Source: Candidatus Iainarchaeum sp. (lineage in GTDB: Archaea; Iainarchaeota; Iainarchaeia; Iainarchaeales; JAZDDZ01). From it: a stretch of DNA of 28,812 nucleotides. The translations under genes and the position numbers were made by a program. Shown piece after piece: positions 511-15,288 of the stretch. A model generated the notes under the pieces. It searched no databases. It had not been told where the DNA came from and saw nothing but the letters and a program-made list of their open reading frames with translations. The number at the start of each line of letters is the position of its first letter. The stretch's first letter is position 1. The stretch is from assembly GCA_043809245.1 (NCBI GenBank), contig JAZDDZ010000050.1:1-28812 (forward strand), written 5' to 3'.

Positions 511-518
511 ATTTTCCC
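511..518. repeat. Left copy of putative 8-bp target-site duplication (ATTTTCCC)
   Basis: Directly abuts the left TIR; matches CTTTTCCC at 4553-4560 at 7/8 positions. IS6-family elements make 8-bp duplications. Confidence 0.7.
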
Positions 519-540
519 GGCTTTGTCGCAAAGTCGTCGT
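519..540 (+). repeat. Left terminal inverted repeat GGCTTTGTCGCAAAGTCGTCGT
   Basis: Reverse complement of 4531-4552 is GGCTTTGTCGTAAATTCGTCAT (3 mismatches). Confidence 0.85.
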
Positions 541-562
541 TTTTGGCTGTTTTTCTGGCGAA

Positions 563-577
563 TGTCGTATTCGTCAG
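563..577 (+). repeat. Inner left inverted repeat TGTCGTATTCGTCAG
   Basis: Perfect 15-bp reverse complement of 4505-4519. Confidence 0.9.
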
Positions 578-593
578 ATTGGGGGGGCTGTAA

Positions 594-1619
594 ATGACCC
601 CTAAGGATAGGAAACGAAAGGGAGGTGAAGGCAAGCGTAAACGGAGTAAGCGACAACTGAGCAAACCAAAAATAGGCAAACGAAAGGCTAAAAAAGAGAA
701 AATACATAATATTGAAGAAAAAATGGACAAAGTTTATGTAATTATCGGGGGCTTGGCAATACTCACTTTAGTTTCAATTGTCTTTTCAGCCATATCTTTT
801 TCTTCTACCTCAAATATCCAAAATATACTTTCTTCACAAGCAGAGACCATTTCTGAATCAACATCTTCAAGAATTAGCGATAGATTTATGCCAAAATTAA
901 ACGAAATTGGCGAAGATGTTAATAACCTAAACCGAAAATTAGTTGATATTAATAATGCACTTTGGTTAGAATCTGAACAACATTTTTTAGAGGTCATGAA
1001 CAAAGTTGATGATTCAATTGTAGCAGTAATTGCCGCGCCTATAAAAGAGGGGCGAGAAGGATTAGGCGTTATTTATGTGGATAATCTTGGAAATGAAGGA
1101 TATATTGGAGCGGGATTTTCAATTAATAGCGCGGGACATATATTAACTGCAAGGCATAATGTAGATGGTTTTGAAACAATACTTTTAATGTCTGCGGATG
1201 GAACAATAATATCTGTTCCCAAAGAGATTATTCTTTATCCCCCATCAGGCGATTTAGCACTTATACCAATAAAAACAGACATTCCCTCTGTGGAACTATT
1301 AGAACAAGGAACATTAGATATAGGTTCTAATATTGGCTTTATTGGTTTTCCTATTCCAACTAAGGATGGTGCTATAGTGGAAACTAAAGCAACAGGAACT
1401 ATTTCAGGATTTTATTATTATGAGTATCGCGGTAAAAAAGTACCAGCCTATGTAATCCATTCATTGGCAACACATGGTAATAGTGGTGGTCCGATTTTTT
1501 CTATGAAAACGGGGAAAGTAGGAGGCATGATTAATCAGGGCATTTCTGAAAATATAGTCGGCATAGCATTAGGTTCAGCATTTAATAAGGCTAGCTTAGG
1601 ATTACCTAATCCAAGTTAA
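594..1619 (+). CDS. Membrane-anchored trypsin-like (S1/HtrA-type, no PDZ) serine protease; real start may be ATG 723
   Basis: Catalytic triad motifs LTARHNV, GDLALI and HGNSGGP; TM helix VYVIIGGLAILTLVSIVFSAISF followed by a coiled-coil linker. Confidence 0.85.
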   Translation: MTPKDRKRKGGEGKRKRSKRQLSKPKIGKRKAKKEKIHNIEEKMDKVYVIIGGLAILTLVSIVFSAISFSSTSNIQNILSSQAETISESTSSRISDRFMPKLNEIGEDVNNLNRKLVDINNALWLESEQHFLEVMNKVDDSIVAVIAAPIKEGREGLGVIYVDNLGNEGYIGAGFSINSAGHILTARHNVDGFETILLMSADGTIISVPKEIILYPPSGDLALIPIKTDIPSVELLEQGTLDIGSNIGFIGFPIPTKDGAIVETKATGTISGFYYYEYRGKKVPAYVIHSLATHGNSGGPIFSMKTGKVGGMINQGISENIVGIALGSAFNKASLGLPNPS

Positions 1620-1621
1620 AA

Positions 1622-2749
1622 TCATAAACTTTTTTCTATCAGGCTTAACCATTTATTTCTTTCTAACTGTAAATTTATTCCTGCTTTTTCTGCTGGCGTT
1701 TTGCCGATTGTGGAATTGTTTTTGACGAAGTTGTGGTAAACCCTATGCCCATTCAACCATTTCTGCGTTGAAGCGTTTGATTTGAAGCCCCTGCGTACCT
1801 TGTCAAATTCTCGGAATTCGTTGTGGTATCGTTCCACTAAATTGTTGTTAATGATTTTTCTCCTGCCAACAATACTTATGTGCTTTGTTCTTTGCGATTT
1901 TGTGCGGAATTCTTTGCCTATGGCTTTGCTGTAAGTCCTCAGCTTGTCAGTAATAATGTATTTTGGTTCTATTGCGTTGGCGTTGTTTTCTTTTACTTCG
2001 TTGAAGTGCTTGCGGGCATCCTTAACAGTTCTTCCCTCTGTCAAAGTTGAGGCTAAAACGTATCTGGTGCTGTGGTCTATTGTGTTCCAAGCGTAAACCC
2101 ATTTGCCTTTAGACTTAACCATTTGCTCGTCGGAGTGAAACTGTCCGCTTAATTGAGGTGTAAACTTGTTTGTGTACTGTTCTATTTTTGCCGTGAACTT
2201 GTTTATCCACCTGCGGATTGTGTCAAAGTGAATTCTAATGTTATAGAATTGGTAAATGGTGTCGCTGATGTCCCTTAAGCTTAGCCCTTTGAAGTATAAG
2301 TCCATTGCGAGGGTTATTATTTTTGCGTCTGCTTTGCAGTATTTGATGGGTGTTTTTACAAAGTTTTTTCCGCAGGATTGGCAGTATAGTTTTTGCTTTG
2401 CTCCGTTCTTGTTTTTCCTGAAGCCGACTTTTACTATTTTGTTTGACCAGCAGAAAGGGCATTCGTCTTTGTTTTCGTTCACTTCTTTTTCCAAGTCAAA
2501 GCCGTCTAACTCCGTTTTGTGCTTGGCTTTCAAAAAGAATTCTGTGGCGTGAATGTGCTTGCATTTAACGCCCCTTGCTTTAAAATCGGGGCAACTGCAT
2601 TGCCAGCCGTCAATGTGCTTGACTTCATATTTTCCGTTGCCTGATTGGCTTGGAACTAAAAACTCTTCCTTGCTTACAGCAACAGGCACATCGCCTTTAG
2701 CGATAATTGCCAGCCCTCTTATTTCTCTTGAGTCCATATTAACAACCAT
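1622..2749 (-). CDS. IS6-like DDE transposase with N-terminal SWIM zinc finger, zinc ribbon and HTH
   Basis: SWIM CSCPDF...CKH; zinc ribbon CPFC...CQSC; HTH LAMDLYFKGLSLRDIS; DDE motifs HSDEQMVK, IITDK and NNLVERYHN. Confidence 0.9.
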   Translation of the reverse strand: MVVNMDSREIRGLAIIAKGDVPVAVSKEEFLVPSQSGNGKYEVKHIDGWQCSCPDFKARGVKCKHIHATEFFLKAKHKTELDGFDLEKEVNENKDECPFCWSNKIVKVGFRKNKNGAKQKLYCQSCGKNFVKTPIKYCKADAKIITLAMDLYFKGLSLRDISDTIYQFYNIRIHFDTIRRWINKFTAKIEQYTNKFTPQLSGQFHSDEQMVKSKGKWVYAWNTIDHSTRYVLASTLTEGRTVKDARKHFNEVKENNANAIEPKYIITDKLRTYSKAIGKEFRTKSQRTKHISIVGRRKIINNNLVERYHNEFREFDKVRRGFKSNASTQKWLNGHRVYHNFVKNNSTIGKTPAEKAGINLQLERNKWLSLIEKSL

Positions 2750-2820
2750 TAATAACTATTAATAATAAATAGCGAAGTGTTTATATATCTTTCTATTAAT
2801 GACTATTAGTGGTTGTTAAT
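2738..2820. promoter_or_regulatory. Divergent promoter: central TATA element flanked by 27-bp inverted operator-like repeats
   Basis: ATTAACAACCATTAATAACTATTAATA (2738-2764) matches the reverse complement of 2794-2820 at 23/27 positions; TTTATATAT lies in the middle (~2780-2788). Confidence 0.7.
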
Positions 2821-2950
2821 GGCTAAGAAACTTATTTTAGATATTGATGAAGCCACATGGAGAGAGGTATTAAAATACAAAATAGATTATGGATTAAAGA
2901 ACAATAATCAAACAGTTATAAAGCTCATACAAAAAGGATTAAAACTGTAG
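2819..2950 (+). CDS. 43-aa ribbon-helix-helix-like regulator (MAKKLILDIDEATWREVLKYKIDYGLKNNNQTVIKLIQKGLKL)
   Basis: ATG 2819, TAG 2948-2950. Alternating beta-strand KKLILDID followed by two amphipathic helices split by Gly. Divergent from the transposase. Too short for the ORF track. Confidence 0.7.
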   Translation: MAKKLILDIDEATWREVLKYKIDYGLKNNNQTVIKLIQKGLKL

Positions 2951-2966
2951 CTAACCAAAGTTCTAA

Positions 2967-4199
2967 ATGGCAATTGGACAACCAACTCAGCAAAGAATTA
3001 CTTGGTTTTATCAGAGAGATAAGGAAGGCGCTCTTGAACTTGCCCCTCCATTCCAAAGAAAACCTGTTTGGAGTATGAAAAATAAATCCTTTTTGATTGA
3101 CACAATAATTCAACAACTTCCAATACCAGAAATTTATATGCAAATAAAAACAGATAAAGATGGAAAAACCAAATATGTTGTTGTGGATGGGCAACAAAGA
3201 TTAAGAGCTATATTAGAGTTTCTGGAAGGAGAATTTTCTATTCTCTCAGACGATAACCCCACACACGGAGATAAAGAATTTAAAGAACTCCCTGACGGGG
3301 TTAAAAAAGACATTTGGGATTATGCTCTTGTAGTAAGAGAACTTGAAAATACTACTGATGAAGGAATAAGAGGAATTTTCACTAGATTAAATAAAAATGT
3401 TGTTCCATTAAATAGACAAGAACTAAGAAACGCTCGATTTGTTGGGGAGTTTATAAAATTGATGACTGAACTTAGCGAAGATACTTATTGGGCAGAAAAT
3501 AGAGTTGTTTCTCCAAGCGACATAAGAAGGATGCTTGATGTTGAATTCATTAGTGATTTGTTTATAACGACGATTCACGGAATTCAAGATAAAAATTCAG
3601 ATACCCTTGATAATTTTTACAAAATGTATGATGCACAATTCCAAGACAAAGAACCGCGAGAAAAACAGTTTAGAAAAACTTTAACAATTATTGACGATAT
3701 ATTAGGAGATTTAAAACCAACCCGCTGGCATTACAAAAATGATTTCTACTCTTTATTTGTAGTAATATCTGAACTAATAAATGAATACCAATTTCCAACC
3801 GAGAGATATCCATTAATAAAAGACTCTTTAAACACATTTATTTCAGAAGTTGATTTGAAAGGAACAAAATCGACTCAATCACTAATTAAGGAATATTCTG
3901 AAGCATCGGAAGCACACACAACTAACCAAAGTCAAAGAAAAAAGAGAGTAAACGTAATTCGCCAATTAATAATCCCCTTCTTAATCGCAAAAGACCACAA
4001 AAGAAATTTTACTGAGGAAGAAAGACGAATATTTTGGAATATGGCTAAAGAGAAAAAATGTGCTCTATGCAAAGATGAAGTCAAATGGGCGGAATATGAG
4101 TTAGACCATATAACCCCGCATACAAAAAGTGGGAAAACCGAGTTACAAAATGCACAGATAACTCACAAAAAATGCAATGCCTCAAAAGGGGCAAAATAA
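2967..4199 (+). CDS. DUF262 (ParB/Srx-like) + C-terminal HNH nuclease, GmrSD-like putative modification-dependent restriction/defence protein
   Basis: PPFQRKPVW, VVDGQQRL and FTRLNK motifs; C-terminal CALC...ELDHITPHTKSGKTELQNAQITHKKCNASKG. Confidence 0.85.
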   Translation: MAIGQPTQQRITWFYQRDKEGALELAPPFQRKPVWSMKNKSFLIDTIIQQLPIPEIYMQIKTDKDGKTKYVVVDGQQRLRAILEFLEGEFSILSDDNPTHGDKEFKELPDGVKKDIWDYALVVRELENTTDEGIRGIFTRLNKNVVPLNRQELRNARFVGEFIKLMTELSEDTYWAENRVVSPSDIRRMLDVEFISDLFITTIHGIQDKNSDTLDNFYKMYDAQFQDKEPREKQFRKTLTIIDDILGDLKPTRWHYKNDFYSLFVVISELINEYQFPTERYPLIKDSLNTFISEVDLKGTKSTQSLIKEYSEASEAHTTNQSQRKKRVNVIRQLIIPFLIAKDHKRNFTEEERRIFWNMAKEKKCALCKDEVKWAEYELDHITPHTKSGKTELQNAQITHKKCNASKGAK

Positions 4200-4223
4200 T
4201 TAATCTATAGAGGCGGGATAAAA

Positions 4224-4508
4224 ATGTTCAGAGTAATTAATATTGAAAAACTAAAAAGGATTTATAGCCAAACCAAAAGCCAAGACCTAAAAGATACAAT
4301 AAAAGTGTTCATTGAAGCATACCATACAATTAATCCCTTAGACCAAGAGCTTCAACAAATCAAGGCAAAGCTTTCTCAACTGGAAGAAAAATATGTAGAG
4401 CAAAACTATTCAGTTGATGATGTTGATTCAAAAGCCGATGACTTAAAGAGTGAGATAGATGACTTGGAACGAAGGATACTTGACCTTGAGGCAAAAGAAA
4501 AAAACTGA
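4224..4508 (+). CDS. Small coiled-coil protein, transposon cargo
   Basis: 94 aa with heptad repeats (LQQIKAKLSQLEEK, LKSEIDDLERRILDLE); GAGG upstream; stop codon inside the inner IR. Confidence 0.65.
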   Translation: MFRVINIEKLKRIYSQTKSQDLKDTIKVFIEAYHTINPLDQELQQIKAKLSQLEEKYVEQNYSVDDVDSKADDLKSEIDDLERRILDLEAKEKN

Positions 4509-4519
4509 CGAATACGACA
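4505..4519 (-). repeat. Inner right inverted repeat CTGACGAATACGACA
   Basis: Perfect match to 563-577. Confidence 0.9.
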
Positions 4520-4530
4520 GGCAAATTCAT

Positions 4531-4552
4531 ATGACGAATTTACGACAAAGCC
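4531..4552 (-). repeat. Right terminal inverted repeat
   Basis: ATGACGAATTTACGACAAAGCC, 19/22 match to 519-540. Confidence 0.85.
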
Positions 4553-4560
4553 CTTTTCCC
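4553..4560. repeat. Right copy of putative target-site duplication (CTTTTCCC)
   Basis: 7/8 identical to 511-518. Confidence 0.7.
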
Positions 4561-4652
4561 CCTTTTTAAATAGGTTTTTAAAGCTTTAGCAAGGATTTTT
4601 ATTTAGTGGGATTAAAACTAATTCACCTTAACCGGTGGGTGGCTGCTTTAAA

Positions 4653-13393: not shown

Positions 13394-14371
13394 ATGCAGT
13401 CAGTACTTGTAACTGGGGGAGCGGGTTTCATTGGAAGCAATTTCGTGAGGTTCCTGCTGAAAAAATACTCAAAGGTAAAAGTGGTTAACTTGGACAAGCT
13501 TACTTATGCTGGAAATTTGGATAATTTGAAGGGATTGGAGGAAAACAAGAACTACAAGTTCATTAAAGGCGACATCTGCGATGCAAAGACCGTGGAAAAG
13601 GCAATGAAGGGCTGTGATGTTGTAGTGAATTTTGCAGCGGAATCACACGTGGACCGCTCAATTGAGGACCCTGCATCGTTTCTCAGGACTGATGTTTTCG
13701 GAACATATGTTTTATTGGAGGAAGCGCGGAAGCAAAAAGTGGAGCGGTTTGTGCAGATTTCAACCGATGAAGTTTACGGAAGCGTGGAGCAGGGAAGCTC
13801 AAAGGAAACCGATGCATTGATGCCCCGTAATCCATACTCGGCTTCAAAGGCAGCGGCTGACAGGCTTGCTTACAGTTTTTATGCAACTTATGAATTGCCC
13901 GTAGTAATAACTCGTTCCTCGAATAATTATGGGCCATATCAATACCCTGAAAAAATCATTCCGCTTTTCATCACAAATCTTTTGCGCGGAAAAAAGGTGC
14001 CGTTGTATGGAGACGGAAAGAATTCAAGGGACTGGCTTTACGTGGAAGACAACTGTGAAGCGATTGATTTGGTTTTAAGCAAGGGAAAAAACGGCGAAGC
14101 CTACAACATTGGCGCGGGAAACGAGGTTGAGAACGTAAAGCTCACGGAAATGATTCTGGAGGCGCTTGGAAAGGGAAAGGAATCAATTGAGTTTGTAAAG
14201 GACCGCTTGGGGCATGACAGGCGTTATTCGCTTGACTGCGGAAAAATTGAGGGGCTTGGATGGAAGCCGAAAGCGGAGTTCAAGAAAAAGCTGGTTGAGA
14301 CAGTGGAATGGTATAAGCAGAACAAGTGGTGGTGGAACAGTCCAGTTGAAAAAAAGGGGGCAAAAAAGTGA
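13394..14371 (+). CDS. rfbB: dTDP-glucose 4,6-dehydratase
   Basis: VTGGAGFIGSNF, DKLTYAGN, AAESHVDRSI, STDEVYG, YSASK, GHDRRY. Confidence 0.96.
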   Translation: MQSVLVTGGAGFIGSNFVRFLLKKYSKVKVVNLDKLTYAGNLDNLKGLEENKNYKFIKGDICDAKTVEKAMKGCDVVVNFAAESHVDRSIEDPASFLRTDVFGTYVLLEEARKQKVERFVQISTDEVYGSVEQGSSKETDALMPRNPYSASKAAADRLAYSFYATYELPVVITRSSNNYGPYQYPEKIIPLFITNLLRGKKVPLYGDGKNSRDWLYVEDNCEAIDLVLSKGKNGEAYNIGAGNEVENVKLTEMILEALGKGKESIEFVKDRLGHDRRYSLDCGKIEGLGWKPKAEFKKKLVETVEWYKQNKWWWNSPVEKKGAKK

Positions 14372-14439
14372 AGTCCGATTTCGCAGGGGAAATCTACTGT
14401 CTAGAAAGTAGCTTTAATTCACCCAAAACAGAATACTTT

Positions 14440-15288
14440 ATGTCCGAAACATATTCAATCGATAAAGAGTTTATTGAAAAGCAGTATTTTGAGAATAATA
14501 AGTCGCAAGAAGAAATTGCCAAAATGCTGGGAATTTCTCAATGGGTTATAAGCAATAGAATGAGAAAGTATGGTTTTAAAACTAAAAAAAGAACATGGAG
14601 ATTGCACAAAAAAATTTACTCATTAGATGAATCTTTTTTTGACAACCTGAACAATGAAAATGCATGGATTCTTGGCTGGATGGCGACTGATGGATATGTT
14701 CGCCGGATTGGTAATTCATTTAGTTTTGGGCTTAAATTAGCTAAAAAGGATGAAGAAATTATTTATAAGATAAAAGAGCCGTTAAAATTTAACGGAAAAA
14801 TTTATCAAGTTATAGAAAGATTAAGGAAAACATCAAAAGATTACAGGCAAGTTAACCTGAAAATTACTAGCGAAAAAATTGTTAAAAGGTTAAATGAATT
14901 TGGGATAATTGAGACCAAGACAAAAAAATTAGAATTTCCTGCATTAATTAGCCAAACAGAAGATGAATTCATCATCAAATCGTTTAGTTTAGGCGCGTTT
15001 GAAGGGGATGGGAGCATATTATTTGATGAAACGTATAAATCCCCTTGTTTTCAGATAGTTGGAACAAAAGAATTTTTATCAGGAATCCAAAAACAAATTA
15101 TGAAATATCTTGGCTTGCCAAAAACAAAACTTACAAAAAATATAAAAAATAGCAATCATTACGCGTTAAGGTACCGTGGAAGATTTCAAGCAATCAAGAT
15201 TTTTGATTGGTTGTACTCTAATCCAATGCATTTTCTGAAAAGAAAACACGAAAGATATTTAGAAATAAAAAGGAGGCTATCTTATTGA
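14440..15288 (+). CDS. Free-standing double-motif LAGLIDADG endonuclease with N-terminal HTH (frame open from GTG 14368)
   Basis: Motifs WILGWMATDGYV and SLGAFEGDGSI; HTH KSQEEIAKMLGISQWVISNRMRKYG; AT-rich relative to flanks; TATA-like CTTTAATT ~14412-14419 before ATG 14440. Confidence 0.85.
   Translation: MSETYSIDKEFIEKQYFENNKSQEEIAKMLGISQWVISNRMRKYGFKTKKRTWRLHKKIYSLDESFFDNLNNENAWILGWMATDGYVRRIGNSFSFGLKLAKKDEEIIYKIKEPLKFNGKIYQVIERLRKTSKDYRQVNLKITSEKIVKRLNEFGIIETKTKKLEFPALISQTEDEFIIKSFSLGAFEGDGSILFDETYKSPCFQIVGTKEFLSGIQKQIMKYLGLPKTKLTKNIKNSNHYALRYRGRFQAIKIFDWLYSNPMHFLKRKHERYLEIKRRLSY

Follow-up and report, generated by a model that had tools for sequence, protein, structure and literature searches.

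A probable IS6/IS26-related unit transposon with passenger genes in Candidatus Iainarchaeum, and archaeal relatives that often carry restriction-modification genes

We analyzed a stretch of 28,812 nucleotides of Candidatus Iainarchaeum sp. (positions 1 to 28,812 of contig JAZDDZ010000050.1, assembly GCA_043809245.1), the whole of which is called the window below. Positions 519-4552 of this window very probably form one complete unit transposon, or in ISfinder terms an insertion sequence (IS) with passenger genes, which belongs to a family related to IS6/IS26 and was inserted as one piece upstream of the gene encoding the TATA-binding protein (TBP). The element spans 4034 bp and contains a single intact DDE transposase. 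A first-pass annotation made from the letters alone had proposed here a 4-kb unit transposon with a transposase lengthened by a SWIM domain and a zinc ribbon, and this description held for the size of the element, for its transposase of 375 amino acids (aa) and for the IS6 protein model, which the transposase passed. Our analysis supports that reading and generalizes it to a large archaeal family whose members often carry restriction-modification genes. The element is delimited by the following features.

511 to 518, unstranded: left copy of the target-site duplication, ATTTTCCC, agreeing with 4553-4560 at 7/8 positions
519 to 540, forward strand: left terminal inverted repeat, located downstream of the transposase; agrees with the reverse complement of 4531-4552 at 19/22 positions and with the IS6/IS26 consensus at 11/14
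563 to 580, forward strand: left subterminal repeat, in which the end motif (TGTCG.A..CGTCA type) occurs a second time, 94% complementary to 4502-4519
4502 to 4519, reverse strand: right subterminal repeat, pairing with 563-580 and aligned with the ends of relatives
4531 to 4552, reverse strand: right terminal inverted repeat, located upstream of the transposase; agrees with the left end at 19/22 positions and with the left end of the related locus L002 at 21/22
4553 to 4560, unstranded: right copy of the target-site duplication, CTTTTCCC; the first possible start of the TBP open reading frame (ORF), the GTG at 4635, follows 75 bp further on

The 22-bp inverted repeats at 519-540 and 4531-4552 called by the first-pass annotation were thus recovered with 19 of 22 positions matching, and the repeat search reports this terminal pair as 20 nt at 90% identity. 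We consider the pair to be specific because its sequence is restricted to the two ends, because it agrees with the IS6/IS26 end consensus and because a further inverted pair lies inside it. When up to one mismatch was allowed, the 14-mer 519-532 was present in the 28.8 kb scanned solely at the two ends of the element; with up to two mismatches we obtained 5 matches against 0.58 expected, a number reached in 0 of 100 shuffles. The IS6/IS26 end consensus, GGTTCTGTTGCAAA, taken from the available text of PMC6807381, agrees with the ends of the window element at 11/14 and 10/14 positions, including the GG at positions 1-2, G7 and G10. The 14-mer search and a search with end profiles found no further end-like sequences inside the element or beside the transposase gene, and the profiles found none elsewhere in the window. 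The GC content is 35.8% within the element and 44.1% in the remainder of the window.

The transposase gene lies between passenger genes, in the following position.

1622 to 2749, reverse strand: transposase, 375 aa, with a SWIM zinc finger, a four-cysteine ribbon, a helix-rich DNA-binding region and a DDE core, as delineated with Pfam, NCBIfam, the alignment and a structure model

In Pfam the protein matched DDE_Tnp_IS240 (PF13610, 1.4e-19) and, above cutoff, SWIM (1.7e-5), together with a zinc ribbon model below cutoff. The NCBIfam IS6 model NF033587 was passed with 134.2 bits (cutoff 125) over residues 139-343, leaving about 138 N-terminal residues that are extra relative to a classical IS6 enzyme. 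The NCBIfam IS256 model NF033543 was not passed (47.4 bits, cutoff 150), and the matches to Pfam Mutator-type models were weak and sub-threshold. Over residues 144-347 the protein is 25.7% identical to the IS26 transposase. D207, D268, E306 and R313, the last being the K/R residue seven positions after the glutamate, are invariant in 36/36 aligned relatives, as are the SWIM ligands C51/C53/C63/H65 and the ribbon cysteines C97/C100/C123/C126. Since the catalytic and zinc-ligand residues are all kept, the transposase of the window looks intact. In the structure model (predicted local distance difference test, pLDDT, 81.8) a zinc module forms the N-terminus, residues 77-93 are a disordered linker, and a beta ribbon and three helices (142-193) precede an RNase-H-like core. 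A search of the protein database yielded at least 774 relatives; the 120 listed were mostly 370-410 aa long (range 227-473) and, where they were named, were called IS6 family or DDE-type transposases of DPANN, Woesearchaeota and Micrarchaeota. A sequence search of the PDB with the transposase matched nothing, and no IS6 structure was matched.

To delimit related elements we scanned 185,579 species genomes with the transposase alignment. This gave 178 pattern matches, of which 113 were confirmed and the best 80 kept, corresponding to 78 loci. A two-part-end pattern (GG...TGT..., then TGTCG[C/T]ATTCG 10-45 nt later) was found at 31 ends; two belong to the window element and the other 29 are distributed over 20 of the 78 loci. 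End profiles had matches in 46/78 loci at E <= 1, among which the sequences used for building match by construction. Ends were paired around each transposase before the flanks were read, resulting in 19 pairs outside the window. Fourteen of these end-similarity pairs had identical 8-nt flanks as called, and in 2 more (L013 and L066) the flanks became identical once the called end was moved by 1 nt, so that 16/19 pairs picked on end similarity alone, with the flanks unread, showed a duplication; L018, L019 and L061 showed none. A blind search for inverted repeats around the transposases returned mostly chance AT-rich pairs, and 15 candidate pairs were re-read. This re-reading added, with duplications, L025, L033, L053, L056, L062, L069 and a second element in L019, and, without a duplication, L065. 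The pairs of L043, L029, L049, L054, L060, L009 and L012b were dropped, being without end-like sequence or duplication. The final tally is 31 elements in 30 of the 78 loci, 2081-7743 bp long with a median of 3401 bp. Their flanking repeats agree at 8/8 positions in 25 and at 9/9 in 2 (L062 and L066), and 27/31 are therefore perfect, a result that also bears out the 7/8 duplication which the first-pass annotation had noted around the window element. The same annotation had named transposase homologues not bounded by such repeats as the finding that would contradict it; the homologues that we delimited are bounded, with perfect 8-9-bp duplications in 27 of 31 and spans of 2.1-7.7 kb.

None of the 31 elements consists of a bare transposase gene. 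Nearest to a plain IS are the second L019 element, L025, L028 and L050, whose transposase frame is 518-785 aa long. These longer frames (L019 5222-6991, L025 6744-9101, L028 7254-9128, L050 7605-9161) end in the same DDE domain, which points to further N-terminal domains fused to the transposase. The closest relative with its upstream end on the contig is L002, with a transposase 70% identical to that of the window and a terminal repeat that agrees with the right end of the window element at 21/22 positions and is accompanied by the same subterminal copy. Its interval between end and transposase holds only a 101-aa ORF and the small regulator gene described below, and its cargo is unlike that of the window. 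The host record titles among the loci include Woesearchaeota, Nanoarchaeota, Aenigmatarchaeota, Micrarchaeota, Thermoplasmatota, Methanoregula, Halobacteriales, Hadarchaeota and Bathyarchaeia, and one Methanoregula locus lies on a 2.29-Mb chromosome. With Methanoregula, Thermoplasmatota, Halobacteriales and other such labels among its hosts, the family is not confined to small genomes. L002 and L018 come from bins with bacterial labels (Saccharibacteria and Kosmotogaceae), through either mis-binning or transfer beyond archaea.

The ends of these elements have a common layout in two parts. A terminal GGnnnTGTCGnAnnnTCG is followed by a box of 4-6 nt, and 10-25 nt further on a subterminal TGTCGCATTCG is followed by the same box, so that each end holds two copies, one terminal and one subterminal, of one motif of about 16 nt. 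The box is repeated within an element and differs between elements, being GTCAG in the window, L046 and L052, GGCACC in L039, GGCTG in L041 and TGGACTT in L012. The 10 nt that follow the conserved core recur at >= 8/10 positions in the subterminal region of the same end at 34/64 ends, compared with 494/3960 comparisons between elements. Agreement with the IS6/IS26 end consensus averages 9.2/14 over the 64 ends of 32 elements. Judging from these sequence patterns, the terminal and subterminal copies are probably two predicted transposase-binding sites per end, with an element-specific part. In L041 (10373-10482) the entire two-part right end of about 55 nt occurs twice in tandem, with the target duplication after the outer copy.

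In four loci we observed a right end followed by exactly 8 bp and then by the left end of a different element (L001 at 1139/1148 and 4824/4833, L002 at 652/661, L019 at 7004/7013 and L056 at 10648/10657). In L001, L019 and L056 the 8-mer between the abutting ends is the target duplication of the inserted element, which suggests that new copies land in the 8 bp beside a resident end, a form of end-directed targeting that builds tandem arrays. The possibility that the neighbour of the element in L001 is flanked by a third copy of the 8-mer was rejected, as end-like sequence is absent at the other three copies in that locus.

Upstream of the transposase gene of the window lies a small gene in the opposite orientation, which we treat together with the region that separates the two.

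2738 to 2820, unstranded: control region separating the divergent transposase and small genes; both start codons are covered by the arms (2738-2764 and 2794-2820, 85%) of a 27-nt inverted repeat
2819 to 2950, forward strand: small ribbon-helix-helix (RHH)-like protein, 43 aa from the ATG, with homologous ORFs in 9 loci and a structure model

The first-pass annotation had counted this RHH gene among the cargo. Its recurrence divergently upstream of the transposase in 9 loci argues instead that it is probably a core regulator of the element. The protein had no Pfam match. A profile made from the window protein and three similar small ORFs found homologues at E <= 7e-12 in L001, L002, L011, L015, L023, L027, L037, L040 and L071, three of these nine matched loci having served as seeds. 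In all nine cases the homologue lies upstream of the transposase match, at a distance of 80-208 bp and on the opposite strand. At this place other elements carry small RHH-type ORFs of a different kind, for example a Pfam RHH_5 protein in L012 and a homologue of it in L058. The model of the small protein (42 residues, pLDDT 86.4) shows an extended N-terminus and two helices, and its fold matches, considered further below, are consistent with an RHH identity without proving it. The spacer between regulator and transposase contains an inverted repeat in 8/9 relatives examined, several with a GTAGTAT-type core, a count made with no chance control, and we regard the 27-nt inverted repeat of the window as a putative operator. 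The spacers of L011, L015, L023, L037, L040 and L071 have inverted GTAGTAT-like copies, and these loci form a subfamily whose small protein begins TSIKIDP. The window differs from this subfamily in having another palindrome and another N-terminal strand; operator and regulator may be changing together between subfamilies.

The remaining three of the five genes of the window element are passengers.

594 to 1619, forward strand: trypsin-like serine protease, 341 aa, whose N-terminus is basic and which has one hydrophobic stretch that probably spans the membrane (Pfam Trypsin_2, 1.3e-13)
2967 to 4199, forward strand: DUF262(ParB-like)-HNH nuclease, 410 aa, of GmrSD-like architecture (GmrSD_N 9.9e-22, HNH 1e-7)
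4224 to 4508, forward strand: predicted coiled-coil protein, 94 aa, with only sub-threshold matches of coiled-coil type in Pfam and NCBIfam

A single internal transposase with passengers on both sides had been called in the first-pass annotation, and we found exactly this arrangement, with the protease on one side of the transposase and the nuclease and the coiled-coil protein on the other; these three passengers also stand from its list of cargo. All five reading frames of the element are open. The protease scored far below the cutoffs of the NCBIfam HtrA/MarP-type models, and its PADLOC matches are at the level of the protease domain only; the coiled-coil protein had no PADLOC match. In the DUF262-HNH protein GmrSD_N covers residues 25-158 and the translation contains the DGQQR motif. 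PADLOC models for NsnA (4.9e-43) and PD-T4-2_A (6.7e-26) matched its middle region. Its C-terminus matched the Pfam models HNH (PF01844), HNH_5 and HNH_4, with no DUF1524 match listed. The family to which it belongs has at least 1749 homologues of about 410 aa, which where named are called McrA-like or ParB-like/HNH, and a sequence search of the PDB with the nuclease matched only a Cas9 HNH segment. One homologue in this family, P0126 (59% identical to the window protein), and the transposase homologues P0106 and P0113 each list a longest contig of 87,329 nt. If all three are on the same contig, as they may be, this would represent a second element with the DUF262-HNH type of cargo.

The only matches that tblastn with the cargo proteins and the neighbours of the element gave in the related loci were to distant TBP in L028 (10746-11318) and L074 (4943-5416). 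These TBP homologues, about 39% identical to that of the window, lie a few kb from the transposase, a proximity that is probably a coincidence. The TBP ORF to the right of the window element matched Pfam TBP at 1.7e-53, and the remainder of the window is an archaeal N-glycosylation/sugar cluster with AglB/STT3 and glycosyltransferases. Just to the left of the insertion ends a stop-free frame of about 113 codons (110-451), without ATG, GTG or TTG near its beginning, which may be a gene remnant or have an unusual start. Within the glycosylation cluster the GC content dips to 30.3% at 14401-15000, with about 45% around it. The dip lies inside an ORF (14368-15288) for which HTH_50 is the sole Pfam domain matched and which may be another acquired gene.

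As the first-pass annotation had proposed, we catalogued the cargo between the ends of the transposase homologues. Pfam and PADLOC were run on the ORFs within the delimited elements, and ORFs of at least 100 aa outside the elements, in the same loci and with the same treatment, served as control. Restriction-modification models were matched at E <= 1e-12 by 11/63 non-transposase ORFs of at least 100 aa inside the elements, compared with 2/259 outside (Fisher p = 4.2e-7). For any PADLOC model the numbers were 13/63 inside and 18/259 outside (Fisher p = 0.003), many of the outside matches being generic ATPases. Because ORFs of one system are not independent, we also counted by element, and found restriction-modification genes in 8/31 elements, two of which (L018 and L061) are without duplication, and AbiE-like or SIR2 genes in 2 more. 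The variable cargo of the family is thus enriched in restriction-modification genes, and the elements that carry these and the other defence genes are as follows.

L004: type III restriction-modification
L011: type II, a methylase and a ThaI-type endonuclease
L061: type II, a methylase and an EcoRV-type endonuclease
L018 and L055: type IIG restriction-methylase models of PADLOC as best match
L036: type IIG restriction-methylase model, with type I/II methylase models scoring higher
L039 and L041: methylase fused to an Mrr-type nuclease
L012: AbiEi-like protein and a nucleotidyltransferase
L062: SIR2 protein and a candidate defence protein

An element carries up to seven cargo ORFs and is up to 7.7 kb long, and about half of the cargo ORFs are without annotation. 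No recombinase or resolvase domain was found among the cargo ORFs scanned with Pfam. In L013 (4496-5389) and L031 (5109-5990) we observed proteins of about 295 aa that are 33% identical and have a weak match to a proteasome subunit (Ntn-hydrolase); together with the trypsin-like protease of the window they make peptidase-like cargo recurrent. The first-pass annotation had presented the transposon as a vehicle for defence genes in small-genome archaea. The defence cargo stands, as these counts show, and the limit to small genomes falls with the hosts listed above.

Several observations weigh against the reading of 519-4552 as one complete IS6-related transposon. An inverted repeat of this size is weak alone, as an unrelated 20-nt pair at 90% identity is among the 66 inverted pairs that the repeat search found. 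The end profiles were built partly from the window's own ends, which makes their E-values for the window circular. The flanking repeat is 7/8 and not 8/8. When the right flank was shifted by 10-40 nt as a control, agreement was on average 2.25/8 with a maximum of 7/8, which occurred once among 128 comparisons; the 7/8 match is therefore by itself an event of about 1%, and gains its weight from the 8-bp rule in the relatives. Among those relatives, 4/31 elements are without duplication (L018, L019 7013-9145, L061 and L065), the pairs of L010, L015, L031 and L035 were found using the duplication as search key and so are not independent support, and 48/78 loci could not be delimited, having short contigs or diverged ends. 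The tblastn search found no homologue of the window's cargo in any of the 78 related loci, and the combination is so far unique. For the small protein the top PDB fold matches are mostly RHH (NikR, CopG, MazE9, ParD, AmrZ and PutA as titled) with template-modelling (TM) scores mostly of about 0.6-0.83, and are not significant (E >= 0.59). The solved structure that best matches the transposase model is that of the IS256-family ISCth4 transposase (6xg8_A, E 9.1e-9, TMq 0.43); retroviral integrases, Mu and IstA come next. Finally, the window contains one copy of the element, and the protein cluster of the transposase has a single member on a single contig, so that there is no sign of recent movement.

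In the mechanism that we propose, the transposase would bind both motif copies at each end and join the 3' ends to target DNA whose strands are cut 8 bp apart. Movement would follow the IS6 route through a replicative cointegrate and, because the elements are without a resolvase, resolution would be left to the homologous recombination of the host. The small RHH protein would repress the divergent promoters through the 27-nt inverted repeat, and thereby its own gene. The nuclease might restrict modified foreign DNA and so give the host a reason to keep the element, a defence function that we infer by analogy.

We consider it unlikely that the same element moves by copy-out/paste-in, through a circular or abutted-end intermediate as in IS256, and not by IS6 cointegrates. 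Such a route would account for the ISCth4 fold match, the weak sub-threshold matches of the transposase to the NCBIfam IS256 and Pfam Mutator-type models, the protein size of about 375-400 aa, the 9-bp repeats in two relatives and the junctions of right end, 8 bp and left end in L001, L002, L019 and L056. However, the catalytic region passes the curated IS6 cutoff (134 vs 125 bits) and fails the IS256 one (47 vs 150), and the ends of the element agree with the IS6/IS26 consensus. The abutting ends come from different elements and have unlike sequences on each side, and are thus not circle junctions of one element, and since no IS6 structure was matched in the PDB the IS256 fold match may only reflect which structures have been solved. 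It is somewhat unlikely that the window element is a fossil, once mobile and now fixed, with transposition lost and its genes domesticated or decaying. This would fit the single copy in 28.8 kb, the single-member protein cluster, the one mismatch in the target duplication and the three between the 22-nt ends; it fits poorly with five open frames, with the retention of all the catalytic and zinc-ligand residues that are invariant in the family, with the presence of both parts of both ends and with a composition that is still foreign (35.8% vs 44.1% GC).

That 519-4552 is not one element at all is very improbable. The region would then be a short IS6-type IS whose neighbours have nothing to do with it and around which inverted repeats 4 kb apart arose by chance, or else what is left of a composite transposon built from two IS copies. 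It is true that classical IS6 members, according to the available text of PMC7986276, move cargo only as directly repeated pairs, and that AT-rich DNA yields many chance inverted repeats, such as the 66 pairs in the window. Yet there is only one transposase, no end-like sequence lies beside its gene or elsewhere inside the element, the two-part architecture of the ends is common to the window and its relatives, perfect duplications surround multi-gene spans in 27/31 relatives, and the element has a lower GC content than the remaining window. We therefore retain the reading of one complete unit transposon.

Beyond the window, a broader proposal seems to us evenly balanced between true and false. 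It holds that these elements are a large undescribed family of IS6-derived archaeal unit transposons, in which a SWIM/zinc-ribbon transposase is combined with an RHH regulator and with two-part ends that contain an element-specific recognition box; that in DPANN, Thermoplasmatota and methanogen lineages they act as general vehicles for defence genes, those of restriction-modification among them; and that their preferential insertion into the 8 bp beside a resident end produces tandem arrays that could seed defence islands and new combinations of cargo. IS6/IS26 is the textbook case of a clinically important IS that moves other genes only as pairs, and the relative described here carries genes inside a single element in many archaeal lineages. 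It would offer a concrete, sequence-defined route for the spread of restriction-modification and other defence genes through the archaea, and also into symbionts with small genomes, about whose defence repertoire little is understood. With its defined ends, its 8-bp duplication and a compact core of transposase and small regulator, the system is directly testable and might be developed into an archaeal transposon tool, and the co-varying box and the end-adjacent insertions provide leads on how such transposases pick ends and targets.

In the open-access literature searched, supplements aside, we found no paper that describes archaeal unit transposons of IS6 type with cargo inside them, ends in two parts and an RHH partner. 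The ends, the 8-bp duplication, the movement of cargo as pairs and the cointegrate route of IS6/IS26 are already known from the available text of PMC7986276 and PMC6807381. The window element resembles IS6/IS26 members (IS26, IS257, IS6100) in its protein, whose DDE region scores above the IS6 cutoff, in ends near GGTTCTGTTGCAAA, in its 8-bp duplication and in having no resolvase, and departs from them in size and number of genes. Those elements are 0.7-0.9 kb long (up to about 1.5 kb) and have one gene for a transposase of about 210-250 aa, whereas the window element has 4034 bp, five genes and a transposase of 375 aa. In addition, its ends carry a second, subterminal copy of the motif, and its cargo lies inside one element, not between two copies. 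With one transposase gene and two end-like sequences in inverted orientation it does not have the structure of a composite (pseudo-compound) IS6 transposon. A single pair of inverted ends that encloses a transposase and other genes, flanked by a target duplication, is the structure of a unit transposon or tIS.

Transposases of IS6 type extended by zinc fingers are known from Clostridia (clades h and i of PMC7986276, clades VII and VIII of PMC6807381, e.g. ISCpe7). From the published descriptions available, by which alone they are compared here, they share with ours an IS6-type core, an N-terminal Cys-rich extension and a length of 340-450 aa, in contrast to which stands the size of their bacterial elements, 1.2-1.5 kb, among which the reviews mention a passenger gene for ISDsp3 only. 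A single IS6 member with a passenger gene is also on record, ISDsp3 of Dehalococcoides, described in the available text of PMC7986276 and PMC6807381 as having one hypothetical passenger in 1456 bp. Like the window element it has a non-transposase gene inside IS6-family ends, whereas in the archaeal family the cargo habit extends throughout the clade, with up to seven cargo ORFs and 7.7 kb. As to the cargo, the type IV restriction enzyme GmrSD cleaves modified DNA, for instance DNA with glucosyl-hydroxymethylcytosine. It is encoded by a single gene, and its DUF262 domain senses modified DNA (available text of PMC12065111). The window nuclease has in common with this and other DUF262 defence proteins (SspE, PD-T4-2 and NsnA of Menshen) an N-terminal DUF262 with DGQQR and a C-terminal nuclease in one polypeptide; unlike in GmrSD, the nuclease domain is a classical HNH (PF01844) and not DUF1524. 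According to the same source, Menshen (NsnABC) consists of NsnA followed by the ABC-ATPase NsnB and the effector NsnC. In the window element NsnB and NsnC are absent, and the sole gene downstream of the nuclease within the element is the 94-aa coiled-coil ORF.

The likeness to IS256 (ISCth4) lies in the best solved-structure match, a similar protein length and duplications of 8-9 bp, and the difference in a transposase that fails the curated IS256 cutoff and in ends of IS6 type. Defence cargo is reportedly also found on Tn7-like transposons. Closest in cargo are the transposon-like restriction-modification units with inverted repeats and an 8-bp target duplication that Furuta, Abe and Kobayashi described in bacteria in 2010 (PMC2853133). 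In the available text of that paper the units are bacterial and mostly without a recognized transposase, with no archaeal case after selection, whereas in the family of the window element the transposase, the ends and the regulator are defined.

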